From contig OZ231126.1 of assembly GCA_965153355.1 (NCBI GenBank), positions 15,314,001-15,378,000 on the forward strand: a stretch of DNA of 64,000 nt, read 5' to 3'. How positions within the stretch are numbered: position 1 is the first letter of the stretch; the number at the start of each line of letters is the position of its first letter. The position numbers and the translations under genes were made by a program. This document shows positions 1,254 through 36,162 of this stretch, piece after piece. The DNA is from Flaccisagitta enflata (Eukaryota). A model generated the notes under the pieces. That model searched no databases. It was not told the origin of the DNA and saw only the letters and a program-made list of their open reading frames with translations.

Positions 1254-16008
<14,755 letters not shown>

Positions 16009-16799: not shown

Positions 16800-19700
16800 A
16801 TGACATTCCATGCGCGTCTCGAGGCGACGATCGTCGGCCTGCTCTATACCGTGCTGTTGGTGGTGACATCGATAAATTGCGCGGTTGTCAACGAGACCGC
16901 GGTGAGCCTCGGCTCCACCATTCATCTGCCTTGCGCCGTCGCCGACGACGCCAATGATGAAGCCAACCATGTAATCGCCAACAACCAAGTCACCTGCATG
17001 GCTTGGTATAAGAAGCGATCACCCATATGGAAAGATCGCACTTACTTCGCGTCCGAGTCGTGGAGCAGCGCCAAATATGACCTCGTCGGCGCCTACGATT
17101 TGCTTCTCAACAACGTCTCGTTTCAGGACGCCGGAGAATACGTTTGCGTGAAAACCGTCAAAATTCTCGAACCAGATCAGCTCTGCGAAGATGAAGAGGC
17201 GGTGGTTAAGTCGCGAGAGAGGAATAAGTGGTCTGTGTACGTCCTCGATCGCCCCAATTGCTTCGTGAAGAGCGCCGGCAAGGCGGATAAGTCTTACGTG
17301 CGTATCGGCAATAACGTTACGATGGACTGCGAAATGAGATTCGCCGGCAGCGCGAGAAATCCGCCCAACGTTACGTGGAGATCTACGGCTTTGCCGGATG
17401 CGACGTTGGGAGACCAACCGTCGAAACCCGTCGATAACTTGGCGCAAAGCCAGCTCATCATTACAGTGTTACAGTCGGATAAAGATCAAGAGTAAGTCAA
17501 TTTGTGCAGCCGTTTTTGCTTATTGATGGCCTATCTTCTCATCTTGTTTGTCATTTCGTTTAAATTTTTTTTTCTTTCTTTCTTTCTTTTCTTCCATCCT
17601 TTTCTTTCTTATCTTTCTTTTCTTCCATCCTTTTCTTTCTTATCTTTCTTTTCTTCCATCCTTTTCTTTCTTATCTCTTTTTTTCTTTCTTTGCCTTCTT
17701 TTCTTTCTTTCCTTTGAAATCCTTTCTTTTCTTTTCTTTTTTTCCTCTTTTTTTCCTTTCTTTGGACTTTCTCTTTTCTTTTCTTTTTTTTTCTTTTTTT
17801 TTTTGTCTATTCTTTTCTTTGGTCTTTTTTCTTTTCTTTGTTTCTTTGGTCTTTCTTTTCCTTGGTCTTTTTGCTTTTCCATGGTCTTTTTCTTTTTCTT
17901 GGTCTTTTTTCTTTTTCTTGGATCAATTTCTTTTCCTTGGTCTTTTTTGTCCCCGACGAATAGTTTTCGTCGGTGACTATGTGATGGACCTGATCGTGTA
18001 GTCTGTCGTCGTTGTTCGTTTGTTTAAAACCTTCTCATATCTTTTGAACCAGACCTCAGAAGTTCATGAAACTTTACCAGTGGTATTTTTATGTCAATGG
18101 GAGCTTGTGTACTAATTTTCAGAAAAATTCATAAACTTTTACTACCTTTTGCCTATTATTTTTGTAGTAATATTTTACTAGACTTAGGTGATTTCCATAG
18201 GTAGAGGGTATTAAATCTATGTGAATTTTTTTTTAATTTAGTATACAAGCAAAGGGTATTAAACAAACAACCCCTGCAAAATTTGAATTAAATCTGAGGT
18301 CTGGTTCATGAGATATTAGCTTATTAAAGTAATAATATGTTGCTAGGCAGTTTAAATAGGCAAAGGGTAGTAAAGGTGTGTGAATTTTTTTTCAATTTGG
18401 TATACAGGTAAAGGATTTTAATTGAACAGCCCTTGCAAAATTCGAATTATATTTGCAGTCTGGTTTATGAGATATTAGCTTATTTATGTATTAATGTTAC
18501 TATTACCTAGGCAATTTATATAAAGGTTTCGAGTTGATGAATTTTTTTACTTGCTCATTCATTACAATTTGATTTTTCTTAAGATTTGCCAACATGGATT
18601 TCAAGATTCATCTTCATTCTTCAACTACAGTCATCATCTTCAACTACAGTCATCATCTTCAACTACAGTCATCATCTTCAACTACTGTCATCATCTTCTG
18701 TCATCATCTTCAACTACTGTCATCATCTTCAACTACTGTCATCATCTTCAACTACTGTCATCATCTTCAACTACTGTCATCATCTTCAACTACTGTCATC
18801 ATCTTCAACTACTGTCATCACCTTCAACTACTGTCATCACCTTCAACTACTGTCATCACCTTCAACTACTGTCATCACTTCAACTACTGTCATCACCTTC
18901 AACTACTGTCATCACCTTCAACTTCTGTCATCACCTTCAACTACAGTCATCACCTTCAACTGTCATCACCTTCAACTACTGTTATCACCTTCAACTACTG
19001 TCATCACCTTCAACTACTGTCATCATTAACTGTCATCACCTTCAACTACTGTCATCACCTTCAACTACTGTCATCACCCTCAATTCTGTCATCACCCTCA
19101 ACTACTGTCATCACCTTCAACTACTGTCATCACCTTCAACTACTGTCATCACCTTCAACTACTGTCATCACCTTCAACTACTGTCATCACCAACTACTGT
19201 CATCACCTTCAACTACTGTCATCACCTTCAACTACTGTCATCACCTTCAACTACTGTCATCACCTTCAACAACTGTCACCTTCAACTACTGTCATCACCT
19301 TCTTCTGTCATCACCTTCAACTACTGTCATCACCTTCAACTACTGTCATCACCTTCAACTACTGTCATCACCTTCAACTACTGTCATCACCTTCAACTAC
19401 TGTCATCACCTTCAACTACTGTCATCACCTTCAACTACTGTCATCACCTTCAACTACTGTCATCACCTTCAACTACTGTCATCACCTTCAACTACTGTCA
19501 TCAACTTGAAAAATTTGTTTGTAATTAACTACAGGCCTGTATATTGTTCTACATTCCCCCCCCGGTGGGGGGGGGAAAATAATCAAAGGGTTTGGAGATT
19601 GGGGAAAAAATTCAAGGGGAGAAAAAGAGAAAAAAAGAAAATTTGGGGAAAATAAAACTTTTGACTGTACCAAATCATAAAAAATGATTAGTAAAACACA

Positions 19701-21782
19701 ATTTAACACTGTTTAAACCATAAAAACACTGTTTTATTGCTACATGGGGCAGAAAATCATACATTTTGTAACGCGACGCGACGCGTCGCGGGAAAGAAAA
19801 TCAAAGGCAGGGGGGGGGGAAACTAATCAAAGATCATAGAACTATATACATCCCTGATTAACTACTGTCATCATCTTCAACTACTGTCATCATCTTCATC
19901 TACTATAATCATCCTCCACATCTTCGACTACTTAATTTTTTTGAAAAAAATTTTTGAAAATATTTTTTAAAAATTTTTGAAATTTTTTTTTGAAATTTTT
20001 TTTTGAAAATTTTTTGAAGTTTTTTTTAAAATTTTTTTTTGAAAATTTTTTGAAAATTTTTTTTTGAAAATTTTATGAAAAATTTTTTTTTATCAATCTT
20101 TTTTTTGAAAATTTTTTTAAATATTTTTTTAAAGATTTTTGTTGTCATTATCATTCATTGTTATCATCATCATCCACTATTGTTATCATTATCAAGTTAT
20201 GTCATCATTAAAGCAATAATGAATATTTTTTTGCTTGAAATTGCTGTCTTGTCGTGTATCTCATCGAGTTGCGTTTACGCAACGAGAAAGCTTCAAAAAT
20301 TACAGTCCCCAGTCGGGGACTGAAATTTTTTTCTTTTTAGTTTTTTTTTCTTTTCCCAGTCTTTTTTTTTCTTTTCCTCGTCTTTTTTTTCCTTTCCTTG
20401 GTCTTTTTTTCTTCTCTTTGGTTTCTTTTCTTCTCTTTGGTTTCTTTTCTTCTCTGTGGTCTTTTTTCTTTTGTCTTTTTGCTTTTCTTTCTTTTATATT
20501 GTCTGTATTTTCCTCTACTTCCTTTTCTTCTGTCTACTTTCTTTTCTTCTTTCTCCTCTCTTTATTTCTTTTCTGCATAACGTCCTATCGTCCATTTCAA
20601 TTTTCTTTCATTCTTTCCATCTTCTCGTTCTTCTTTCTTCAATCCTCAATCGATCTCTAAAACTTCTCCTTCCCCTCCCCCCCCCCCCCCTTGTTCAGAT
20701 ACGTTTGTGAAGGTACGCACTCAAGTTGGAACATGACCTTGGACCCGATTCCGATATGTCCCCAAGTCCTTCGTCCTATCGTCGTGGGCTGGTTCCGAGA
20801 CCCTCCATCGTGGATCGTTTGCGCCGCCGTCGTGGCTCTGTTGAGCGCCGTCGGCACGTGCGCCTGGTGCGTCCGATGCTGCAAGAAACGCAGTCTAAAG
20901 AAAGAAAAAGAAAAGGATGCTGCGGCCGCCTCCGCCATGGCCTCTGCGCCGCCGTCGGTGTCAGTGGACGGCGGTGGCAGCAATATCCCTTTCGTCTACG
21001 GAATGGGCGGCCCTTCTCTCAAGGATTTTCAAGCTCAAGTCTCGACGGTGGTCCGACTGCAGAATGCCAAGAGGAACGCCGAACTCGGAGCGGCTGGGAA
21101 GAATTTAGATTCGGTAGATGGCGGCAGAGTGGAGACGGTCAAGAACGACCCGCGGCAACAGAATGGATCGGTGGTGAATCAGCTCGAAAATGACGCCGCA
21201 TTCGCTGCCAAAGGCCAGCCGCTGTCTCAACATTCGACCCAACAGAAGCAGCGTGATCCGCAAGAGTCGCCACTCATACCGCAGCAACGGCTCATGCCGC
21301 AACATCAACAGTCGATGCCACAGTCAATGCCGCAATACCAATCTTTCAACAACTCAACCTCCGCTACACCCAATTTGTACGTCTCGTCGCCATCCCAGGC
21401 CAAAGATGTCGATGGAAGCGACACTTCAACCGCCGATCCCATCACATATGGCGATGGAGGGAGAATCGACGATCAACCAGCGTCTGCCGTTCGGAAAAAT
21501 GGAGTCAACGACGGTGGTGTAACTAGGACGACGACGACAACGCAGCAGAGTTCTGAAAATGCCCCGACGCTCACCAGGTTCGGACGTCGACCTCCACCGG
21601 CACCTCCTTTTGAAAAGCCTCCTCGTGTGGGCCCACGAGGCAGAGGGTCTCACCGTTCCAACACCCTTGGTGGACCCGTGTCCATTGCACAACAACAACA
21701 GCAGCAGCAGCAGCAGCAGCAGCAGTCTATTAGGCAGGTCACGTTTAAAACCCAGTCTTTGTCTTCCGAGGGGCGGCAGTGA
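16800..21782 (+). CDS. Type I transmembrane immunoglobulin-superfamily protein (signal peptide, two Ig domains, TM helix, low-complexity cytoplasmic tail), 591 aa to the first stop
   Basis: Exon 16800-17491 (GA|gtaagt) joins exon 20699-21782 (ttcag|A) in frame. Ig1: LPC...WYKK...YDLLLNNVSFQDAGEYVC. Ig2: VTMDC...NVTW...DQEYVC, spanning the intron. TM WIVCAAVVALLSAVGTCAW followed by CVRCCKKRSLKK. Confidence 0.85.
17949..20321 (+). mobile_element. Family A copy 3, carrying a ~900-nt 19-mer minisatellite (tcatcaccttcaactactg)
   Basis: GTCCCCGAC...GTCGGGGAC termini; array at about 18610-19505, interrupted at about 19530-19857 by another repeat also present at 55877-56600. Confidence 0.75.
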
Positions 21783-23582
21783 TCATCCGAGAGTGCGGGA
21801 GACCATCATCCGTGGGCGACCACCCATCGTGGAGGACGACCAAACGTGGACGACCAACCGAGTCCTCCTGCCGTCTATCTGGGGAAGCTCCCTCGACCGC
21901 CGAGAGCCAGAAACCCATCTTTAGGATCGTTAGGGAAACGCCGCCAGGGCGGCAGCAGCAGCAACAGTGGTCACCACTTCAACAACAACAACCGCAGCTT
22001 CGACGACGGCTTCGGTCCGAGAGCTAGAGATTACCCAGTTTCCACGGCGGGAAGACGCGGAGGCGGGATGGGTCACAAACCGCAGCACCATGGATGGACA
22101 AAGCCGCCAATGACAACGGGAAGAGGAGGAATGACGGTTACCATGCATCATCCTCCAGGAGGCGTGGGCGCGGGTAACGGTGAGCCGTCCATGTCCACCG
22201 TTACCATAACGCAAGTGAAAAAGAGTTATCCCATGGAAACAACGAGCGCGCCGTCTGACCGACGTGACTGGGGGGAACAACAACTACAACAACAACAGCG
22301 GCACTACCAACAACAGCACCATCGCGGAATCGACGACGCGGACGATAGTTTCCACTTTCCATCGAGGATTTCGGAAGAAATGCTGGCGGCTGACATAAGA
22401 GAAACCACCATTAATTGCGACGACTACGGCGACCACGATGGAAGCGGCGAGACGAGCGGACGGAACCCTCTGATCGACAGCGTCAATGAGCAGCTCGTCA
22501 GTATCGAGGAACTGCTCAACGTGCAAAGTAGTAAAATCGGTCACGCGAAGAAGTTTGGCGACGACAAATCCGTCGAAGCTAGAGCCCAGGATAACGACGA
22601 TGACGATGATGACTGTCTATCAGAGGTGGTTTCCATGCGCGACGCGGGCACGACCCCGCCACCGCAATCTCCATCGGGGGAGCATCTGACGGAAAACGAC
22701 GCCATCGTCCTGCCCACGATCATTCCTCGATCACTATCCGATGATAATTTGTACTACTCGACTCATACGATCGCTTCAAACACTCGCGAACGTGACGGAA
22801 TGACCGCTTTTGACCACCAACAACGACAGGAATTGGCTCGTTTCGAGCTAGACTTTGATCAGACAAGCGATGAAGACGACGACGACGACGATGATGATTA
22901 TTACCGACGTGGTGGCACTACGCCGCCCTTTCCACTACGCTTAGACTTTGACGACGACGGACGCGGGAATCAAAACAACGAATTGTCGAGATACGACGAC
23001 CCTCTGACTTCCGCCGACCATACGGATGACGAAATGGCTATGTCAACGCCCGAGGATGACTTGAGGGAAGACTTGGAAGCTTTAAGGAGGACCAAAGCGA
23101 GGTACGACGCCTTTTTTCAAGAAATTAGCCAATCGCTCAACGACAGCGGCAATTTATCGTTGAGGGGCAGCAATTCCCTTATCTCCAACGACGACGAACT
23201 GGCCAGTCGTTACAGCAGCGAGACGCGCACGAGCAGTAGTTTGAACAACACATTGGACAGCGGCACCTACGACTACGAAAGACGCCAATTGAAAACCAAC
23301 GCCGGCTACAGATACGACAGGCGAGAACCGTCTTCCTCTTCTTCTTCCTCTTCCTCGCAGAGAGCGCGAGCTGGAAGAATTATGCAGACGAGGACCGGAA
23401 GTTACGACGAGGAGAAATTCAAAAGGGACGAAGCCGATGCGATCCAAGTTTCGGCCGATGCCGCGAAACGGAATTCGTTAGAGATGAAGTACAAGCTGCC
23501 TGGTTTTTGTCCGGACGCCCATGTGACTACCGGATCGCTTCCGGTCAACGCCTCGGAATTTTTTTTCGATAGTCAATTTTGA
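21783..23582 (+). CDS. In-frame 599-codon continuation of the Ig receptor past a single TGA (candidate readthrough extension)
   Basis: Same frame as ORF 20691-21782; the 21 codons between the TGA and ORF 21846 contain no stop; GC-rich coding-like composition drops abruptly to AT-rich after 23582. Confidence 0.65.
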   Translation, partial: SSESAGDHHPWATTHRGGRPNVDDQPSPPAVYLGKLPRPPRARNPSLGSLGKRRQGGSSSNSGHHFNNNNRSFDDGFGPRARDYPVSTAGRRGGGMGHKPQHHGWTKPPMTTGRGGMTVTMHHPPGGVGAGNGEPSMSTVTITQVKKSYPMETTSAPSDRRDWGEQQLQQQQRHYQQQHHRGIDDADDSFHFPSRISEEMLAADIRETTINCDDYGDHDGSGETSGRNPLIDSVNEQLVSIEELLNVQSSKIGHAKKFGDDKSVEARAQDNDDDDDDCLSEVVSMRDAGTTPPPQSPSGEHLTENDAIVLPTIIPRSLSDDNLYYSTHTIASNTRERDGMTAFDHQQRQELARFELDFDQTSDEDDDDDDDDYYRRGGTTPPFPLRLDFDDDGRGNQNNELSRYDDPLTSADHTDDEMAMSTPEDDLREDLEALRRTKARYDAFFQEISQSLNDSGNLSLRGSNSLISNDDELASRYSSETRTSSSLNNTLDSGTYDYERRQLKTNAGYRYDRREPSSSSSSSSSQRARAGRIMQTRTGSYDEEKFKRDEADAIQVSADAAKRNSLEMKYKLPGFCPDAHVTTGSLPVNASEFFFDSQF

Positions 23583-25202
23583 TACTTATGATGCTTTTTG
23601 TCGCAGATAGTTTTTTTCAATGAAATTAACTCTTGGCCAATGTTACTTAGGTGATATTATATAGGTGTGGGCCGTACACCTTTTTTTCTCATTAACATTT
23701 TGATTATTCTGATTATTTCCAAGTAAATCCAAACCCTGCTACATGGTGCTTTTTTTTCAATTTTCACTCTGGACACAAAATTTACAAGAATTTTACAGCC
23801 AGCGCTTGGTTTTCGCTTTGCGTCTAATCGTAGGTGAGGCATTGTTGTGCCGTTTAGTGACAAACGTGACTTATTCAGTAGTGCATTGTCCCCTTTTCTT
23901 ACTACATTCCTAGGTGCTCTTCCTCTGTACTGGACGACTGACTTGATACTATATAGTTGTAAATTTTTAACTTGTTTCGTTACTGAAGAAACGAACAATT
24001 AGGCAGTGCCCATTTTCATTCGATCTCATTTTTTTGGATCTTTTGTCAGTTATCACATGCTACATTTATTTATGATGGTTAATAACAAGTTGCTCTAGAA
24101 CCATAATTATTCCCATGTGGCATTTACCAGTTTTTTGCCGCGTACCATTAGACCGCTTATTAACTGACCAACACTTCCACTTTTCGTCAAAACCGGCGCA
24201 GTGTGGATTTTCTGAATAGCTGTTTAAGGTTTTTTCTTCCACCTCTCTTAGTATGTACTCATGTATAAGCCTTATTTATAACTACCGATTTTTTATCTCA
24301 AACATGGGGAAAAAGCCTTATCTTGCGCTCTTTATTATATGATCATCCTCATGTGCGATCAGAAAATCCTTATTTGTCAATCCAAACGTTTCAGATAATA
24401 AGCTTTAACAGAACCAATTTGGACATTCATTTGAGATAGTTTTACGAGGCTATTGATTATTTTAATTTTACGATTGATTCGTATTTTGGACGATGCATAG
24501 CTGAACTCTCAGGAATAAAAAATAATTTTCATAGAGTATCCTGGTAGTTCAGTAGTTCAGATAGTTTCTTTTCCGAGATTGACGTCTCGTTTCTTTAGCT
24601 CTCCTTTTTGAGTAATAAATCCGCTTTTTCATGATCTCAAAGTTGTTACTTTTCCCCCATTTTTCATACCGATGGATAATTATTCGGCCGTTTCAATTTT
24701 TCAAATAAGACCTTTTGTATACATTTTATGTTGTCTATTACATTTTGTTACAAAAACGTATGTTAAATGGAACTGTTTATACAGCAAATTATATGGCTCT
24801 CTCGCTAATTTTCACGTTCATATATGGTAAAAAGTTTTACCCGATTTTTTCGCCTACTAATCGTCGGTTACGGTAGCTCGGAGTATCCGTGGTCTACTTG
24901 TAAACATAATGGCGATATGGTGAACGTGAGCGAAGAAACTGTAATCTCTACTCCTTGATACTCATTATACATTTTACAACGACAATTCTCTCATAAATTT
25001 CTTTTTACGCGATTGCAAACGGATAGGTTTCTCACGATAGCAAGTAGTGGTTCCGGTATTCATTTACTTTTCTTTTCTTTTTTATAACGCCGACTGCTTC
25101 GTCATGATAAAGAAAACAAAATTATTTATTTTGCTCATTAACAGATGTAAACTCTTGACTTGATTGTAAACACACAAAAGAATTCAAAATCCCTCGTCCA
25201 TT

Positions 25203-28200
25203 ATGGCCGATCCACTGCCGTTAGACCAGCTCAAAGTGGCACGTGGTTCAGCTTCTGGTTCACGATCTTCCGGCGTTGACGATTCGTTACCGGCGCTTCA
25301 CACGGATTGGAAGAAACCCATCCAATTTGTCGTCTATCTTCCACCTCCAGAGCTCAATGTTAGATTGACCGATCCAGGGAAATGGGAAGCGTGGCAGGTG
25401 ATCCTTAAGAGAGCTGTTGCGTCAGTTCGCGTAAAGCTTCGGCGATAGAACTATGATTAATCATCTGTCCTCATGTCCCGCAGGAGCGAATCACATTTAT
25501 CGAGGACGACTTGCATTGGCTCCTGAGGCTGCCTCACCACAAGTTTTGGTCTCAAGTTATATACGACGAGACGCTTCAAAAGTGTCTCGATTCATATTTG
25601 CGGTACGCTCCTCGATCATTCGACAAGGACCTCGATCTCACCGGCGAGTTTGCCGATCGACACAAAAATGTCCACAAGATGGTTTTCCTCGTTTGCCTTC
25701 GATTGTCCACGCACAAGGAGTCGAAGGATCACTTCATTTCTCCCGCCGTTTTTGGTCAACTGCTTTACGACAATTTCCTATTCGACGTCCCAAAACTTAT
25801 GGACATCGCGGTGTTGTATGGCGGCGATAACAAACCAATTGTCACGGTGAGAACTTTGCAGGTTTGAACTCATATGTCATTTTCCCTGCGTCGAGTTGAC
25901 GTTAGCCAATTTGCACAGACTCCCTGAATATATCATTCCCCATTTCCTCTTTCACTCGCACCGTGCAGAAAATGATCGAGAATGTGTTCAAGCAGCAGCC
26001 AAAATACGTTGACGACATGCGTTCTTCCGTTCCAACGATGGTCAACGTGTTCAAGACGCTGAAGGAGAAATGCGGTTTGGATCCCGCGTCTCCGGCCGCG
26101 CCACTGACGACGCGAGGAGGCGGCGGATCTTCCACGCGGCCCCGGGCGCAGCACCCGCTAGACGCCATGACGGAATCAGAAATCAGAGACGTCGTCCTGT
26201 ATCTCACCGATATCGCTTTTAGTCTACACGCGTTCCTCGATTGTTACGACGCCGCCGCAACGCCGCTTTTCGAAGCCGACTTTCATTTAGAATTGCCTAG
26301 TTTCTACGAGAGCCTCATTCCGGCGTTGAAAGAGAGCCATCTTAAACGACGTTGGGAAGATCCAGAGTTGAGGGACTTTTTACGCGAGAAACTCACGCGC
26401 GCTCATTTGTTATTGCCGGGCGTCTTCAAACAGATCTGCCACGCTTACTGCGTCAAACCCATCCTGGAAATGGCATCGAGAGAGAATATGGAACCGACTA
26501 AAGTCGCCAATTTGATAGAATGCTTTTTGCAGGTTTTTAAGTTCGCCTAGTGTTGGTTTTCAATAAGCGTGTATGTGTGTGTGTGTGTGTGTTTGTGTAT
26601 CTGTGTGTCTCTGTGTGTGTGTTTTGTATGTGTGTGTGTGTGTGTTTTGTTTGTGTGTGTGTTTTGTTTGTGTGTGTGTTTGTGTGTGTGTTAGTGTGTG
26701 TGTTTTTTGTGTGTGTTTTTTGTTTGTGTATGTTTTCTGTGTGTGTTTTTTGTGTATGTTTTATGTGTGTGTGTTTTGTGTGTGTTTTTGTTTGTGTGTG
26801 TGTGTGTTTGTTGTGTGTGTGTGTGTGTTTGTGTGTGTTTTTTTTGTGTGTGTGTTTTTGTGTGTTTTTTTTGTGTGTTTTTTTTGTGTGCTTTTCGTTT
26901 GTGTGTTTTTTTGTTTGTGTGTGTGTTTGTGTGTGTGTTTTTGTGTGTGAGTGTTTGTGTGTGAGTGTTTGTGTGTGTGTGTGTGTGTGTTTTTGTATGT
27001 GTTTTTTGTGTGTGTGTGTGTGTTTTTTTTTGGTGTGTTTTTTTTGTGTGTGTGTGTGTTTTTGTGTGTGTGTGTGTTTTTTGTGTGTATGTGTGTGTGT
27101 GTTTTTGTGTGTATGTGTGTGGGTGTTTTTTTTTGTGTGTGTGTGTGTGTTATTGTGTGTGTGTGTGTGTGTGTTTTTTGTGTGTGTCTGTCTGTCTTTC
27201 CGTGTCTCTTTCTGTCTCTTTTTGTCTCTGTCTGTCTCTTTTGTCTGTCTGTCTTTTTGTCTGTCTGGCTGTATGTGTCTCTTTCTATATTTATCTGCCT
27301 GTATATTTGTTTTCTCCACATAGATCTTCTTTGTTGCTTGGTTGTTCGTTAGGCGGCTGAGTCCCTGAACCGTTCTTTTTAGATGCGTCCTCGCATCTCT
27401 ATAAGAGGGTCTGTCCGTCCGTCCGTCCGTCGGTCCGTCCGTCCGTCCGTCCGTCGGTCGGTCCGTTACGCCTCCTTGAAAATCGCAGTTTTCGGCCCTT
27501 TTCAGCCGCAAAGATGTCAAGGATCAAGTCAAACACTCGTTAGAATGTTCTGAGAGCCTCTTTTGATCTGATAATAAATCCGTCAGTCAGTCAGTCAGTC
27601 AGTCAAACCAAATCTAGTGCCGAAGTCGCTACGCACAGATATACAGTCAGGACGCATCGTTGCCCGATCGGGCTTGTTCAATTTCGTTCTAGGCCTACAC
27701 GACGTGCCTCAATTACCGGAAGTTCGTCGCATCATACGAGAATCAATTTCCCATCAGCGACGACGTGGATCTCATCTCGCAATTTGCAGGTCAGCATGAA
27801 TTATTTGCTTCAAGCCTTTCTATAACAACCTCCCGTCGTCGATTGAATAAAATGATTTTTTTTCTCTGATGTCGCTCTCATCGCTTTTGTCGTCATGATC
27901 ATCGTTGTCTTCATCGAAATCGTGGATGATAATTGCATCGTCCCTCTCAATCACTGTCGTTCGGTTTTCGCGACCCCGTCACCGTTATTCAACTTTTTAG
28001 TCCACTTTCATCGTTATCTGCATCGTTGCGGCTCCATGTCTTTATTTTCTCCGTCTCATCCAGGGTCATTTTGCGACGAGACGCAGATAAATTTCGTGGT
28101 GGATGGATTCCGTTCCACCGTATCGGATGCCAACGACGTGAAAGCCTCTCACTCACTCGGCCAACTCTTCAAGTCCAACGTGACGACGACGACGACGACG

Positions 28201-30484
28201 ACAAACAGCGACGATTCTTCCATTGACGTCGTCGCTAACGCCAATCGGGTATCCTCTTCTTCCACCGGCGCTTCGTCCTCGGCGACGTCCAGAGAACCCA
28301 CCGGCGTCGAATTGGAGTCTCTCATTTCCAACGTCCGTGACATTTTCCCCGATTTGGGCGAAGGTTTCATTGAATCGGCGCTCGAAGAATACGGCTTCAG
28401 TTCCGAATCGGTCATCAACGCTTTACTAGAGGACAATTTGTCGCCGAAGTTGAGATCCATGGATCGCGCCAACGCCGTTCGCAAGCCGAAAAGGAAGTCG
28501 CCGCCTCCTCCTCCGTCTTCTTCTCAGAAAAGTGCTTTTGAAGAAGAACATAGAAATATTTACGACGACGTCGGGTTTCAGGGTTTGCGCGATCTACATG
28601 TAGGTAAAAAGGAAACGGCGAAGAACGCCAAAATTATGTTGGACGATAAAAGTCACGTGGATAAGGCCAAATACATCGCCTACGCTAACGCGGACGTTGG
28701 GAGTGGGTCGATATATGATCAGGTTGGTTTTATCTTCTGTTTTATCCACTTCCTCCTCATCACTCTGCCCCTCTTCATCAATCATCAGTCTCCATCACTC
28801 TCTAACTCTTCATTATTCTCTTCCTCTTCATTACCGTTACTCTCCTCCCTCTCCATCACTGTTCCTCTCCATCATCTTCATCACTCTTCCTCCTTATCAC
28901 TCTCTTCCTCCTTATCACTCTCCTCCCCCACTCCTCACTCCTTCCTCCTCATCACTCTTTTACACCTCACAACTTTCTTCCTTTTCCTCGTCATAACTCG
29001 CTTTTTTTTCCTCCTCATAACTCTCAAAACTCTCATAACTCTCATTGCTCGTTCCACCTCATAACTCCTCCACCCCATAACTCTTCCACCCCATAACTCT
29101 TCCACCTCATAACTCTTCCTGCTCATCACTCTTTCTTTTTATCACTTTTCTACCTTATCTTTCTCTTCCCCCTCATTGCTCCTTCCTCCTCATAACTCTT
29201 CCTCCTCATAACTCTTCCTCCTCATAACTCTTCCTCCTCATAACTCTTCCTCCTCATCACTCTTTTCCTCATAACTCTTTCTTTTCATCACTTTTCTACC
29301 TTATCTTTCTCTTCCCCCTCATCGCTCCTTCCTCCTCATCACTCTTCCTCCTCATAAATCTTCCTCCCCATAAATCTTCCTCCTCAAAACTTCTTCATCA
29401 CTCTCAGCCCCATTGCTCTCTTCCTTCTCATCACTTTCTTCCTTCTCATCTCATTCTTCCTTCTCATCACTCTCTTCCTCCTTAATACTCCTTCTCCCCA
29501 TCACTCTCTTCCTCCTAATCACTCTTTCCTCGTCGCTCTCTTCCTCAGCACTCTGCCTCCTCATCACTTCGATCGGTCAATTAGAATTTCTTTCTTATCA
29601 TTTTCCATCATAACCCGAGCTTTCCTTTGATCTTCCGTTACACTCCTCTTCATCATCCTCTCCTCATTGTCTACCTCTCGCCACCGACCGCCCATCATCG
29701 CCATCCTCATCAAAATGCGAATCTTCTTACTCCTCATCATTATTCTCTTTCCCATCTATCTTTTGCTCCTCGTTACCCTTCTTCCTCATTATTATCCTCA
29801 TCGTCATCATTGTCCTTTCTTAACAAGCTATTCCGCCTTATCCCCCCTTTCCTCTTTGTTTTCCATAAATCCATGCCGAGAGGGAAATTTACTTGGCAAT
29901 TGACATTTAGATAATGTTAAAAAGAAAAGAGATAAAATTTATTATTTCTTCCTACACAGGAGAAGAGTTATATGTACGATGATGAGTACGACGACACCTA
30001 CGATGACAATCGCGTTGGCGCCGAAGACGCCGATGACGTGGACGAACTCGGCGATGAAACTGGAAGAAATTTCGTCCTGCCACGCATTTTGCAACAAAAC
30101 CAGAATGAGCCGAGGGACAGACGGGAGGACGACGACGGCAACGACGACGATGAAGGCGAAGAGGAACTACCACCGTGGAAGAGACCCGGCAACAGTCTGG
30201 GAATTGAGGACCCCTCCGTTCTTCGAGAAAGGGCCGCCCAAAGGCGCGCGACAAGAGGTGGTCATCGGGGTGGTGGTAGTGGAGGCGGCGGCGGAGGAGG
30301 AGGAGGTGGCGGCGGAGGCGGCGGTGGTGGCTCTAATAGCAATGTCGTTGGTAACCCCAAAGGACAAGGACAAGACAAAAGTACCGAAATTGCTCGGAAA
30401 CGGAAAGACGCCAACAAGGCCGCGCGGGCGAACCATAACCGGAAATCCCAGGCCGGAAGGAAGCAGGCTAGGGGCATGTTCTGA
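25203..30484 (+). CDS. ASCC2: Activating signal cointegrator 1 complex subunit 2 (CUE domain)
   Basis: Exons 25203-25397, 25484-25846, 25969-26532, 27693-27789, 28064-28722, 29960-30484, all phase-consistent. Motifs: LHWLLRLPHHKFWSQV, LYDNFLFDVPKLMD, CUE ISNVRDIFPDLGEGFIESALEEY..VINALLE, YDDEYDDTYD, KAARANHNRK. Confidence 0.95.
26570..27290. repeat. Degenerate (TG)n/T-rich microsatellite
   Basis: Directly visible simple repeat in ASCC2 intron 3. Confidence 0.9.
27376..27678 (+). mobile_element. Short interspersed repeat family C (5' hairpin, (ccgt)n microsatellite, 3' ...ggcttgtt)
   Basis: ttttagatgcgtcctcgcatct hairpin; similar layout at 46343-46512, 50632-51034 and 54796-54928, and more loosely at 14298-14494 and 60185-60640. 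Confidence 0.55.
28750..29560. repeat. CT-rich minisatellite (cataactcttcctcct-like)
   Basis: Visible degenerate tandem repeat in ASCC2 intron 5. Confidence 0.8.
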
Positions 30485-30815: not shown

Positions 30816-33800
30816 ATGCCCCTGTTCGGGAAAGGGAAATCAAAGAATCCACCGCCACCGCCGCCAAAACCCGACTACACGCCTCAAAATGTGGATTCTG
30901 ACGAGAATCCAACTTATCAGCCTCCGGAGCTGCTCCAGTCGTATTTGGAACCCCCCGTGATGTCGCAAAGCGTGCGCCATTCGGCCTCGGACATTCATAC
31001 AACTAATTTCGTGCCCCCACCCGCCCATCAACTGAAGGCGTCTGAATCGTGCTCTTTCATTCAAAACAATCTCTCCTACGAGGTTGACGGAAATCTAGTC
31101 AAGCAACTTCAAAATTCAAGCGTAAGCACGAGTCCTACTTCGAACGGGCGTCCCAGGTGATTGTTTTATCTGCAATTAATGTACATGTTTCGCAAATTGG
31201 CAGTAAATTAGGAATTAAAGGACATCCTGCAATATTGCGATCATATCCTTTCCGATCCTTTCAACTTCAACTTCAACTTCAATTAAACCGGTTAAGGAAA
31301 GCCAATGGCTTGTAGCTCCGGTGCATAAGGTCAGACATCTCCATTCATGCTATCCATTTCTACAGATATCACTTATCCATTTCAATAAAGACATCAATTG
31401 GTATGAGATACCAACAAACTGATTAAAACATTCCACCTTACCATTGCATAAATTGGTATTTTTACCAAAGTGCAACCGTCCCGTATCCCGTAACAGTGAG
31501 GGATATTGTAAAAACTCGTATCAATCAGTCTTCATAAGTCGGTCGTCCAATCTGTTCTTGAATGAGTCAAGGGAAGGCGCCATCTTTATCTCTCCTGGGA
31601 GAAGATTCCATTTTTGAATCACCCTGTATGAGAAGAAACCGTGCCTCTGTTTTCGGCCATTAACTGCCATCTCTTTTACTAGTCGGGGTCCACCTCTTGC
31701 TTCTCGGACTTCCCAAAATTGATTTGGGTTGATTCTAGTCAATCCTTTGAGCATCTTGAACACTTCAATCATATCTCCCCGATCTCGCCTTTGTTCAAGC
31801 GTCATTAGCTCCAGTTTCTTCCTCCTTTCTTCTGAATTCAGTTTTTTCAATCCATAAACCATGGCTGTTGCCTTTGACTGAACTGCTTCTAGCAGCTTGG
31901 AGTCCGCCGACGATCCAGGTGGGCAGGCGGCCATTCCATAATCCAAGTGTGGGCGGATCCTTTGATTGTATAAGACACAGAATGCCCTCTTGTCAATGTA
32001 CGTAAAGTTTCTCCGAATTCGTGCAATTTCCGCTAGAGCTTTGCATCTTGCCTTGTTTACATGGGTCGAGGTGGACAGATCATCTGTGACCCAGAAGCCA
32101 ATATCCTTTTCAACTTTGACCGTTTCAATCAATGATCCATTCATTGTGTATGGCAAATGAGGGTTCTCTTTTCCAATGTGCATCACTTTTGACTTTTTAG
32201 GATTTATCTCCATTTTCCAATTTTTGGCCCATTGCGCAATGCAGTCAATTCGCTTTTGCAGACATGCTTGGTCCTCCTCATTGCATCTCTCTTCTTTTCT
32301 TATCTCCTGGTAGCACTTTGTGTCATCGGCAAGTAACATAACCAAGGACTGTTCTTCCGGGCTGCATGCCTCAGGAAGATCGTTGATAAATAAAAGAAAG
32401 AGGAGAAAGCCAAGAACAGTCCCCTGGGTGGTCCCACTGACCACCTCCAGCCAATCGGACAGTGCATTGCCCACAGCCACTCTTTGCTGTCGATTTTCCA
32501 AATAGGCCTTCAACCATTGCAAGAGCTTGCCATCAATCCCATAAGCTTGCAGCTTAATGAGAAGCAGCCTGTGAGAAACTTTATCAAAGGCTTTAGCATA
32601 GTCAAAGTAGGCAACATCAACGGCATTTCCACCATCAAGGATTTCTGTCCATCTTTCAAGGCAAAGCAATATGTTGGTCTGGCATGACCTCCCACGGACA
32701 AAGCCATGCTGCTGCTCTGATAGCAGGCCATTAGTCATCAAAAAACTCATTATTGCAGAGCATATCATTCTCTCAAGGACTTTACACAGGACTGATGTAA
32801 GTGCCACTGGTCTGAAATTTGCCATTATTGCTTTGGAGCCAGATTTGTGTATCGGGATAATATTGGCCTCCTTCCACAGTTGTGGTACCTCCCCTTTATC
32901 TAGGGATTTCCGATAGATCTTGTACAACAGTGGGGCCAGTTCTTTTGAGCATTCCTTCAGGATTCGGCTTTCCACACCATCTGGACCTGCCGCCTTGTTA
33001 GGGTTCAACCCTTGGAGAACTTCTTCGACCCCTTCCACTGAGAGGTACACATCTTGGATTCTCTCACTTGTCTGCTCTGAAAAAGCTGGGGGAGGAGTTA
33101 GTCCATCGTCGTATGTAAACACCGAGTGGTAATAGGTATTGAGGGCTGTAGCTGCCTCCTCTTCAGTTTCTGTAAGTTTCCCATCAGCGTCAATCACATT
33201 TGAAACTCCTTGTTTCGTATTCAAGGACCGGCGACAGTGACCATGAAAAAGATTTGGATTCTCTTTCATGTCTGCAATAAGACCTTTTTCATAGTTGGCC
33301 TTTGCTGATCTGATCATGTCACCCAACTTGTTCCTTTCTATCTTGTATGCATCATAGTCTCGTGGCAAGTCAGACTGCTTGAATCTCTTCCAGGTCTTCC
33401 ATTTCAAGAACCTCTGCTTCTTAATTGCTGCGCCTTTCATCCATGGGAGCCGATTCTTGTTACTTTTTGGCCGACAGAGTGGGATATGCTTTGTTTTCAG
33501 CTCGTTGATCTTTTCAACCAAAATCCTATTCATTTCATCAGGTGAATCATCCGAGTTGAGTTCAAAAGTGCTCAAATCCTTTTTCATTGCTTCCCAGTTA
33601 GCATTTTTAAAGTTATGTCTCAATTTTGTTGTATTTTTGAAAATTGGTTCACTCACCACCAATCTCCATTTCTGACACAGATGATCGCTCTTCCCAAGTG
33701 GCGGCAATTCTTGAATATCATTCACCATATTCTCTTCATTGGTGAAGATGAGGTCCAGGCAGGAATTTTGTGATCCCCGGAATCTTGTTGAATTCTGCAC

Positions 33801-35906
33801 ATGCTGGAACAGGTCCAGATCCTCCACCATTTCCAGGAAGCAGCTTGATAATGAGCTTTCCGAATCTGCGCTTTGGTGAGAGCTCCAGTTAATCAGTGGC
33901 AGGTTGAAATCACCACAGATCATGAGGTATTCATGTTTCACAGTAGCAGCCCGTCTTATCATCTCCAGCAATAACTGGTTGTTATCTGCACTCGAGTTTG
34001 GACTGCGATATACTGCCCCAAGAAGCAAAGATTTGTTGTCTCTCAGCTTGATCACACTCCATGTAGAACAATCAAAGCTTCCATTCTCTAGCATTGGGCA
34101 AGCTGAGTGGTTGAGTGAGTCATGAACATACATACCAACTCCTCTTCCTAACCCACCTTTTCCGTCCGAATGGTCACCTCGATATAACGTGTAGCCTTCA
34201 ATACCAAGTTCATTATCCTTAACTGATGTAGCAGCTCCAAACTCCGTGAGAGCCAATACATGAGGATTATGGGCATCAATAAAATCACGTATTTCACTTT
34301 TTTTGTTCATGGCCGACTGGCAGTTAGTGTGCAAAATAGTAAGTTCATTAAGAGATGTCATAGGCAAAGACTCATGCCTACTGTTCAAGTTATCAATACT
34401 ACTTCTAGGTTCACCATTGCTGGTGTTGCCGTTTACACGGTCACAACAAATCAAAAATCATTGCTCCCTCCTGCTGTGGCACTGAGGGGTTGTTGCTGCA
34501 TTGGATGCGGAGTCGCCGGACGTGTATCTGTCCCTTGCAGGGTGCGAGTTGGTGTCTGATCAGGGCCAGTACCTGGTGACTGACCTCCGGTGTCATTATC
34601 ATTGGCAACTGGGCTAGTTCTCTGTCTTTTTGCTGCATCATCCTCCACACTATTTTTTCTCTTTCGGGAATAAGGCCTTCTATCTCCTTGTGGCCACCTG
34701 GCTGCTCTGGTTGCTGTTGCACCTCTTCCTCGTACTGATCCATTCCCTCTGCCAGGTGGACGTCCTCTTCTTTTTCCTCTTCCTCTCTCTGCTTCCGTAG
34801 TGACATTTCCAGCATTTTCCGCATTTTCTTCTCTCTCCCTTTCTAGGCGAAAGAGACGAGCCTCCTCTCTCTGGTTATATGTCCTATCACGCATGATGAA
34901 GACATCATTTGCCAGCTTCACCGATTCAGCCTTCTCAAGAATTCTCTCGCAATCTTCAACCAGAGTGAAAATTGCCAAGGCTTTCCGAGGATATCTTCCT
35001 TTCTGACCAACCCTGATGACTTTGGTTGGTTTCACATCAATTCCCAGCTCTCTCAATATTTCATCCACTTTCTCTTCATCCTGCTTTTTCCGATCTTCAG
35101 CTTCATTTTGAGTTGGTTCTGGGATGTTGCCAAAGATGAGGTTCTTTTCCCGCTTTTCAATCTCCCGGATGTCTCTTATAACTGCATTTGTTTGTCGGAC
35201 ATTTGGGGTCTCTCCGTCCATATTTTTTAGCCGCTTTTCCATCTCATCATTCTTCTTTTCCATTTCCTTCATCTTTTCACTATTCTTTTTGATGGCTTCA
35301 TCATGAGCATCAAGTCTCCCCTTATTCTCTGTTTGGACCGCTTCAATCTGTTCAATTCTTTGGGCAACACCATCAATTTGCTTCAGCCCCTCCAACACCT
35401 TCTGTCGTTCGGCCTGTTGGTCTTCCTGACCTTTTTTGATTGTGGTCATATCCTGCTGAAGAGACTCCAATACCGACTGCAGATTTTTGCTCTTCTCTTC
35501 ACATGTTTTGCACTTCCACATGCTTTTTCCCATTTCTCTCATCATTTCACAGAACTTTGCAGGCAGCTCTGCGCATGTGAAGCAGTACTCCACTTGACAT
35601 TCTTGGCATTTGACTCCGGGTCTGCCTTCATTCTTTCTGTTGACAACAATTGTACACTTTGAACATTTGTCAACCATCTTGCTTTTATTTCTCAGCCGTT
35701 TGTTTCTTTCAAAAACCAAGTCTTTTCGTTCACTTTTCACAAAGAGCCAGCAAGCGTGCAGATGTTCCACATGCGCGGCTACAATGAGTTTCAGAGAGAA
35801 TGAGAGAGATCGAGAGAGAGATCGAGAGAGAGATCGAGAGAGAGATCGAGAGAGAGATCGAGAGAGAGATCGAGAGAGAGATCGAGAGAGAGAGAGAGAG
35901 AGAGAG

Positions 35907-35946
<40 letters not shown>

Positions 35947-36162
35947 TGTCAAAAGTCGTCGTAGAGGTCGAAAGGCAATGCCTGCTCGAAAGGCAATGGC
36001 TGCTCGGTTACGTCCGGGTGAACAATTGTTCACCTAGCACCTCAGTTTGCTGTCTTTGTAATTTCCGCCGTTCGGTTTTCAATCATCAACTTCAATTTTC
36101 TTGCGCTTTTTCACTTCAGCTTTTTCTTTCTTTTTCATCCGGCTTTTTCACTTCCAATCAAC

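Follow-up and report, generated by a model that had tools for sequence, protein, structure and literature searches.

An in-frame UGA between two long open frames of a putative immunoglobulin-domain receptor gene, a candidate for stop codon readthrough

Structure of the locus

We analysed a 64,000-nucleotide stretch of Flaccisagitta enflata DNA (contig OZ231126.1, positions 15,314,001 to 15,378,000 of the forward strand), which we call the window and in which positions are counted from the first letter. The subject of this study is a gene on its forward strand that appears to encode a membrane receptor with immunoglobulin (Ig)-like domains, and in which a TGA in the last exon is followed, in the same frame, by a long open extension (Table 1). 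The predicted coding sequence starts at an ATG that is preceded by an in-frame TAA, and its N-terminus is hydrophobic. The splice donor reads GTAAGT, and the acceptor reads ...CCCCCTTGTTCAG up to 20698, with the AG at 20697-20698. The intron phase is consistent: the halves GA and A form one codon on joining, and the resulting ...DQE-YVCEG completes the Y-x-C motif of an Ig domain. Joined, the two exons give 591 codons. Two stretches of exon 1 matched Pfam Ig models above their cut-offs, with Ig_3 scoring 35.4 bits (cut-off 30, E = 1.6e-8), ig 33.1 (21.8), Ig_2 31.4 (27) and I-set 24.9 (23.7), and the same search of the pre-stop tail and of the extension returned sub-threshold noise only. Reading by eye, we take a hydrophobic stretch of 21 residues (WIVCAAVVALLSAVGTCAWCV), with CCKKRSLKKEKEK after it, as a putative membrane span. 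These signals are best explained by a single gene of two exons, whose product would be a type I membrane protein carrying two Ig-like domains. The window holds no paralogue of it; every relative that we found maps to this single locus.

The intron contains a tandem array at 18619-19507, in which the 19-nucleotide unit CTTCAACTACTGTCATCAC is repeated about 48 times with a 92% match. Long spurious open reading frames (ORFs) run through this array in three frames.

Table 1. Coordinates of the receptor locus and of neighbouring features in the window.
Feature	Position	Strand	Description
PH-domain exon	1468-1704	+	Neighbouring gene
Coding exon 1	16800-17491	+	ATG, hydrophobic signal-peptide-like N-terminus, Ig domain 1 and most of Ig domain 2; read from ORF and donor
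Intron	17492-20698	+	GTAAGT...CAG; repeat-rich, including the 19-nucleotide x 48 tandem array
Exon 2 before the stop	20699-21779	+	End of Ig domain 2; putative membrane span (WIVCAAVVALLSAVGTCAWCV, with CCKKRSLKKEKEK after it); about 310 residues of presumed cytoplasmic tail
Last 16 codons before the stop	21732-21779	+	RQVTFKTQSLSSEGRQ; 15/16 identical in P0003
First stop, in-frame TGA	21780-21782	+	Next base T (UGA-U); ORFs of P0001, P0008 and P0003 end here
Extension, same frame	21783-23579	+	599 codons, predicted mostly disordered; relatives P0002 (78%), P0004 (65%) and P0005 (64%)
Confident predicted helix	23049-23144	+	Extension residues 423-454, ...EDDLREDLEALRRTKARYDAFFQEISQSLND...; 10-residue blocks with pLDDT 84-93; near-identical in relatives
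Conserved C-terminal block	23466-23579	+	KRNSLEMKYKLPGFCPDAHVTTGSLPVNASEFFFDSQF; identical in P0002, close in P0005
Second stop, TGA	23580-23582	+	Coding character ends after it
Gene with CUE domain	27856-29064	+	Neighbouring gene
LINE-type retroelement-like ORF	31521-34457	-	Uninterrupted, 978 residues; endonuclease and reverse-transcriptase domains
518-residue ORF	34451-36007	-	No Pfam match; upstream of the LINE-type ORF, same strand
pLDDT, predicted local distance difference test; LINE, long interspersed nuclear element. P numbers denote relatives described in the text.

Around the first stop the sequence reads ...GGG CGG CAG TGA TCA TCC GAG..., and the frame behind it is open to an extent far in excess of chance. 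The extension has no in-frame stop, while its other two forward frames have 21 and 30 and its reverse frames 16, 23 and 19; given the base composition, 599 codons would all stay open by chance with a probability of about 1.6e-11. Composition carries on across the stop in the same way. The GC content is 0.57 in exon 2 before the stop and 0.54 in the extension, and it is 0.39 in 23583-26000, where every frame has 29-39 stops. By codon position, GC1/2/3 is 0.58/0.47/0.63 before the stop and 0.56/0.47/0.59 after it. A product reading through the first stop would comprise 591 + 1 + 599 = 1191 residues, and its predicted stop-spanning tryptic peptide is Q-X-SSESAGDHHPWATTHR, with W, R or C as X. A preliminary description of this DNA had drawn attention to the open frame between the two TGA codons, to a 591-residue Ig-superfamily receptor with a long form of about 1191 residues, and to a GC-rich composition that continues unbroken over the first stop and drops after the second; the sequence, the ORF reading and the gene model bear out all three.

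TGA does terminate translation in this gene, to judge from the end of the extension, which is itself a TGA, and from the ORFs of relatives, which end at the same residue. A global reassignment of TGA is unlikely for that reason.

Coding constraint in the extension

We searched 1.84 billion representative proteins exhaustively with phmmer, the query being exon 2 translated past the stop. This yielded six matches only, all of them ORF fragments from metagenome contigs. Three match the part before the stop (P0001 at 99% identity, P0003 at 61% and P0006 at 52%) and three match the extension: P0002 at 78% over query residues 478-960, P0004 at 65% over 478-765 and P0005 at 64% over 781-960. The alignment of the extension contains near-identical blocks, namely FHFPSRISEEMLAADIRETTINCD, TENDAI[VI]LPTIIPRSLSDDNLYY, a helix with ...EDDLREDLEALRRTKARYDAFFQEIS... 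and the C-terminus, KRNSLEMKYKLPGF...NASEF[FY]FD[SG]QF, and the ORFs of P0002 and P0005 also finish after ...D(S/G)QF. In the alignment, divergence from the relatives is of similar size in the extension and in the pre-stop tail (60-62% compared with 60%). No relative turned up when JGI metagenome contigs were scanned twice with smaller alignments, and a Protein Atlas search with the extension gave no usable lead (best score 0.82). DNA of this organism occurs in marine metagenome runs of several studies.

Differences within the species provide a second line of evidence. We took them from contigs of three DNA runs (X1, X2 and X3) and dropped those within a skipped repeat at 21684-21733; the counts that follow refer to the 40 differences listed, beyond which there are 36 more. 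In the extension, 9 of the 12 listed differences are synonymous, where the expected fraction is 0.22 (P = 1.4e-4), and the other two frames give 2 and 0. The part before the stop behaves alike, with 12 of 18 synonymous (P = 1.6e-4). No indel is listed in the coding range, whereas seven are listed 3' of 23582, none of them with a length divisible by 3. The only gaps left unaccounted for in the covering contigs come to 12 in all, which is divisible by 3; the skipped CAG repeat may be where they fall. Judged by relatives and polymorphism together, the extension is real coding sequence. The preliminary description had pointed to coding constraint on both sides of the stop as a sign of readthrough, and such signs are found on both sides, in the identity of relatives and in the synonymous excess.

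Two positions shortly after the stop, 21824 and 21899, carry T and A in all three DNA runs and C and G in the window, and both changes are synonymous. Further along, runs of CAA/CAG and GAC/GAT codons encode poly-Q and poly-D stretches (22276-22315, 22590-22613 and 22867-22900). In all runs the depth rises very high on them, with numerous false joints from other loci, and the length of poly-D differs between haplotypes.

Coding sequence behind a stop need not be reached through that stop. The extension could be a separate product that shares the receptor's frame by coincidence: it might have a transcript of its own, be initiated internally or at a non-AUG codon, or be joined by splicing past the stop to an upstream exon. 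In every assembly, gene callers place two ORFs at this locus, and the ORFs of relatives begin at a Met that is conserved in three species (MT[VI]T, at query residue 478). Against this stands the segment that runs from the TGA up to position 22068, where the frame has its first ATG. Six of its eight listed differences are synonymous (P = 0.002), so that a product begun at a downstream AUG does not explain the constraint, and its 95 codons are free of stops (P = 0.02). Because these codons are both constrained and stop-free, translation is read as entering the extension frame upstream of any AUG. Exon 1, which ends in phase 2, would join in frame to an AG at 21792-21793; this acceptor, however, has no pyrimidine tract, and its use would cut the second Ig domain and lose the membrane anchor. 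The similar divergence of the extension and the pre-stop tail likewise speaks for one protein rather than two. We consider a separate product improbable.

The extension is predicted to be mostly disordered. AlphaFold, run with an input alignment of eight rows, gave it a mean predicted local distance difference test (pLDDT) score of 42.5, with 502 of 599 residues below 50. Besides the confident helix listed in Table 1, a second helix is predicted with moderate confidence at extension residues 229-252.

A short motif, GGR..[IV]DDQP[AS], occurs both before the stop, at 21447-21470, and after it, at 21831-21860, 17 residues into the extension. The pre-stop RIDDQPAS is conserved in all three relatives that cover it. 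As an internal repeat on both sides of the stop, GGR..[IV]DDQP is not significant by BLASTP (E = 0.17) and is suggestive only.

Conservation of the stop codon

An in-frame stop in a single assembly could be a nonsense allele, an assembly error or the mark of gene decay, with the tail no longer produced; one CGA>TGA or TGG>TGA change would look just the same. The stop, however, recurs in other data. The X1 contig over 21734-21938 has two differences from the window, and since both lie elsewhere (at the two positions named above), its TGA is intact; X1 is possibly the source animal. Two further assemblies of the same species, whose haplotype differs from that of the window, gave the ORFs P0001 (343 residues, from a contig of 3201 nucleotides) and P0008 (344 residues, from one of 2824 nucleotides), which belong to one cluster and both end ...SLSSEGRQ. 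P0003, from another species (61% identity by phmmer and 60% over the alignment), has ...RQVTFQTQSLSSEGRQ as its last residues, and its end coincides precisely with the homologous residue. Thus both pre-stop matches of the phmmer search that reach the site (P0001 and P0003) end exactly at the stop; P0006 breaks off earlier. The sequence just upstream of the near-invariant last 16 codons is variable in the alignment with P0003. Conversely, none of the six matches spans the stop, and no protein of 528-1680 residues matches across it, so far as this search extends. The ORF of this species' extension is carried by contigs of 4022-4725 nucleotides, and that of the 78% relative by one of 4565 nucleotides.

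An assembly error or private nonsense allele is very unlikely, since the stop is kept in other assemblies and in the 61% relative, and for a gene in decay the extension has retained its frame, its conservation and its synonymous-polymorphism excess. This whole class of explanation is scarcely credible. The preliminary description had named a nonsense allele or assembly error as a caveat, which can now largely be laid aside, and it had looked to orthologous loci for a conserved TGA; the ORFs that reach the site (P0001, P0008 and P0003) do end there.

Alternative routes past the stop codon

If the stop and the extension are both genuine, the next question is how translation passes from one to the other. 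A conventional route would be splicing within the last exon (an 'exitron') or to an alternative acceptor past the stop, which would remove a TGA-containing intron from the mRNA of the long isoform with no recoding and leave the unspliced mRNA to give the short one. Our crude scan turned up eight GT...AG pairs that span the stop and preserve the frame; the best of this poor set runs from 21738 to 21887 (150 nucleotides). In favour of splicing, the first 35 codons after the stop are open to an extent within chance (P = 0.23) and hold one listed polymorphism. Relatives also show what may be introns elsewhere in the exon. Beyond ...NELSR(Y), P0004 passes into unrelated sequence, and P0005 picks up again with MSTPEDE...; this suggests that a more distant relative has an intron within the extension. 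The ORF of P0006 runs into unrelated sequence after ...RIDDQPASS, suggesting an intron where exon 2 of the window is continuous. From P0004 and P0006 it would follow that introns are gained and lost in this gene.

The candidate introns themselves are poor. Scored with an untrained weight matrix, their donors reach at most 4.1 bits compared with 7.2 for the real donor, and the pyrimidine fraction of their acceptors is at most 0.74 compared with 0.95 for the real acceptor. All eight would delete the near-invariant block before the stop, wholly or in part: the shortest, 21738-21887, removes all of it except the first two codons, and with the longer ones the invariant FGRRPPPAPPFEKPPR, or some of the constrained sequence at the beginning of the extension, would be lost too. 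In the 35 post-stop codons, codon usage favours frame 0, with a score of +5.2 compared with -1.2 and -5.6 for the other frames, a modest value that 5% of non-coding windows reach. We regard splicing as unlikely, while taking it seriously as an explanation.

Recoding at the RNA level could leave the same genomic signature as readthrough, a conserved TGA with constraint on both sides, if some transcripts had their UGA changed to UGG (Trp) by A-to-I editing and the long isoform came from these. The local fold around the site is not unusually stable (z = +0.96, for local folding only), and the edited A would have a G on its 5' side and a U on its 3' side. These are the least favoured neighbours for ADAR. 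Editing is, in our view, distinctly improbable.

That the TGA encodes selenocysteine is suggested by nothing beyond UGA being the codon for this residue and the frame continuing behind it. An Rfam scan of 20600-26000, at E values up to 10, gave four irrelevant weak matches and no SECIS (selenocysteine insertion sequence) element. A loose SECIS core pattern had no plus-strand match in 22767-25971 among the matches listed; with 279 matches in all, of which 79 beyond about 29400 are unlisted, the pattern is so permissive that its outcome says little. The sequence around the site is a predicted disordered cytoplasmic tail without a redox motif, no relative has a Cys there, and the sole relative that reaches the site has a stop. 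We give selenocysteine hardly any weight. A tRNA scan of the window found tRNA-His only, and no suppressor or selenocysteine tRNA.

Evidence for and against readthrough

We favour programmed UGA readthrough of the kind described for kelch and Ptp10D, giving isoforms of 591 and 1191 residues, and put its probability at roughly 0.55. Three features of readthrough genes are present: a frame open beyond chance, a conserved stop and coding constraint downstream. We infer that one mRNA carries both parts and that ribosomes cross the stop, and the same holds for how often they do so and for the role of the tail. Most ribosomes would obey the UGA and release the 591-residue receptor ending ...SLSSEGRQ. 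A fraction would decode it with a near-cognate tRNA (for Trp, Arg or Cys, by analogy) and continue through 599 codons to the second UGA, producing the 1191-residue isoform with a cytoplasmic tail about three times as long. Because the added part is predicted to be mostly disordered, with a few conserved helices and short motifs, we propose that it most likely brings binding sites for intracellular partners. The preliminary description had proposed recoding by readthrough, editing or selenocysteine. Readthrough stands as the best reading; selenocysteine is unsupported, and the SECIS element that it had proposed looking for did not appear in the Rfam scan.

Several observations weigh against readthrough. 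Neither a leaky context nor a stimulating structure is seen: the stop stands in UGA-UCAUCC, which is neither the leaky UGA-C nor UGA-CUAG. The preliminary description had rightly flagged the U at +4; positions +5 and +9 are both C, and the context thus departs throughout from the fly signature of C, A and G at these positions (PMC13278127). A fold of the 160 nucleotides at 21771-21930 is no more stable than expected (z = +0.96; 168 of 200 shuffles were at least as stable). The first 116 codons of the extension have no cross-species match, as the ORFs of relatives begin at the Met aligned to query residue 478, and their codon-usage score is weakly coding; the openness of the first 35, as noted above, is within chance. 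The stop in P0003 is read from the end of its ORF, in protein-level data. Contigs of X2 and X3 cover the stop with no difference listed there, and in each of the two 3 differences (out of 12 and 33) are unplaced; the 36 differences beyond those listed temper the polymorphism counts in a similar way. In the poly(A) RNA run X22, sampled at about 6 in 100, 33 reads were placed, 32 of them fitting only in part, in 6 of 30 bins; depth lay mostly on repeat-rich bins, with no read on the receptor gene and none over the stop, which is no evidence either way on expression, splicing or editing. Finally, abundant readthrough is described only in Pancrustacea (PMC5100048).

Not every known readthrough case has a leaky context or a 3' structure. 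Here there is neither a C at +4 nor a downstream stem-loop, and yet the 16 codons upstream of the stop are identical at 15 positions in a relative of 61% identity. On these grounds we put forward, tentatively and as a rather improbable idea, that a signal of a new kind makes the UGA leaky, with this near-invariant block acting either through its RNA or, in the exit tunnel, through the nascent peptide.

Two further observations concern the RNA around the stop. Positions 21772-21779 (GGCGGCAG) can pair with CUGCCGUC at 21868-21875, about 90 nucleotides downstream, and the minimum-energy fold, which encloses the stop through this pairing, is overall no better than shuffles. Starting 29 nucleotides past the stop, 21811-21856 forms a weak direct repeat of 2.7 copies of a 17-nucleotide unit (CGTGGACGACCACCAAA-like, 75% match). 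The copies are read in different frames, because the period is not a multiple of 3, and the repeat may be an element at the RNA level or, the sequence being GC-rich, a product of chance.

Neighbouring features

Neighbouring genes and a retroelement-like region are listed in Table 1. The upstream PH-domain exon may belong to a gene of the ceramide-transfer-protein type. A homologue search with one neighbouring ORF gave no hit, and a Protein Atlas search with the LINE-type ORF was uninformative as to taxon.

Discussion

If programmed readthrough occurs at this locus, one stop codon would set the length of a receptor's cytoplasmic tail at about 310 or about 910 residues, and few readthrough extensions known would match this one in size. 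Its bearer would be a membrane receptor from a planktonic animal of the sea that annotated genomes lack, all six database relatives being metagenome fragments. An annotation that ends at the first stop would then lose half of the protein. If splicing were responsible instead, this would be an ordinary gene with two isoforms. With UGA-U, no predicted structure and a near-invariant upstream block, the locus is a useful test case for what makes stops leaky outside Drosophila; were the organism outside Pancrustacea and the idea of an upstream signal true, it would be a conserved 599-codon readthrough of kelch scale in a lineage without described abundance. Our literature search found no paper that joins stop codon readthrough with copepods.

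Several known systems bear comparison. Eukaryotic selenoprotein genes also have an in-frame UGA followed by conserved coding sequence, but here we found no SECIS element, no redox context and no known Cys homologue. The evidence is of the same kind as that of Jungreis et al. for Pancrustacea, whose candidates (PMC5100048) show a conserved stop with a coding signature up to the next in-frame stop and are weighed against alternatives. Their analysis drew on whole-genome alignments of many species, whereas ours draws on protein fragments of two or three relatives and on polymorphism.

Fly readthrough genes, as described in PMC13278127, typically have UGA, conserved stops and long, GC-rich, disordered extensions. 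The extension here is likewise long, indeed far longer than usual, as well as GC-rich and predicted to be disordered. Ptp10D, one of the neuronal readthrough genes, is a membrane receptor that is read through at UGA, according to bioRxiv 10.1101/2020.06.22.165522, and like the putative receptor described here it is a single-pass protein whose cytoplasmic C-terminus is thereby extended. Neither Ptp10D nor the other fly readthrough genes are related to it in sequence, and their C, A, G context contrasts with the U, C, C found here.

The nearest parallel in architecture may be kelch. Its protein, a cytoplasmic ubiquitin-ligase adaptor, is unrelated to the Ig-domain membrane protein proposed here, and its readthrough has been shown experimentally, whereas the present case is known from sequence alone. 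According to the same source (bioRxiv 10.1101/2020.06.22.165522), both kelch and Ptp10D have a stem-loop that begins 8 nucleotides past the stop; that of kelch is conserved and stimulates readthrough, unlike the region examined here, for which no stable structure is predicted. UGA readthrough takes the kelch product from 77 to 160 kDa in that account. As in kelch, a UGA stands here between two long conserved ORFs of the same frame, and passage through it would roughly double the protein, from 591 to 1191 residues.

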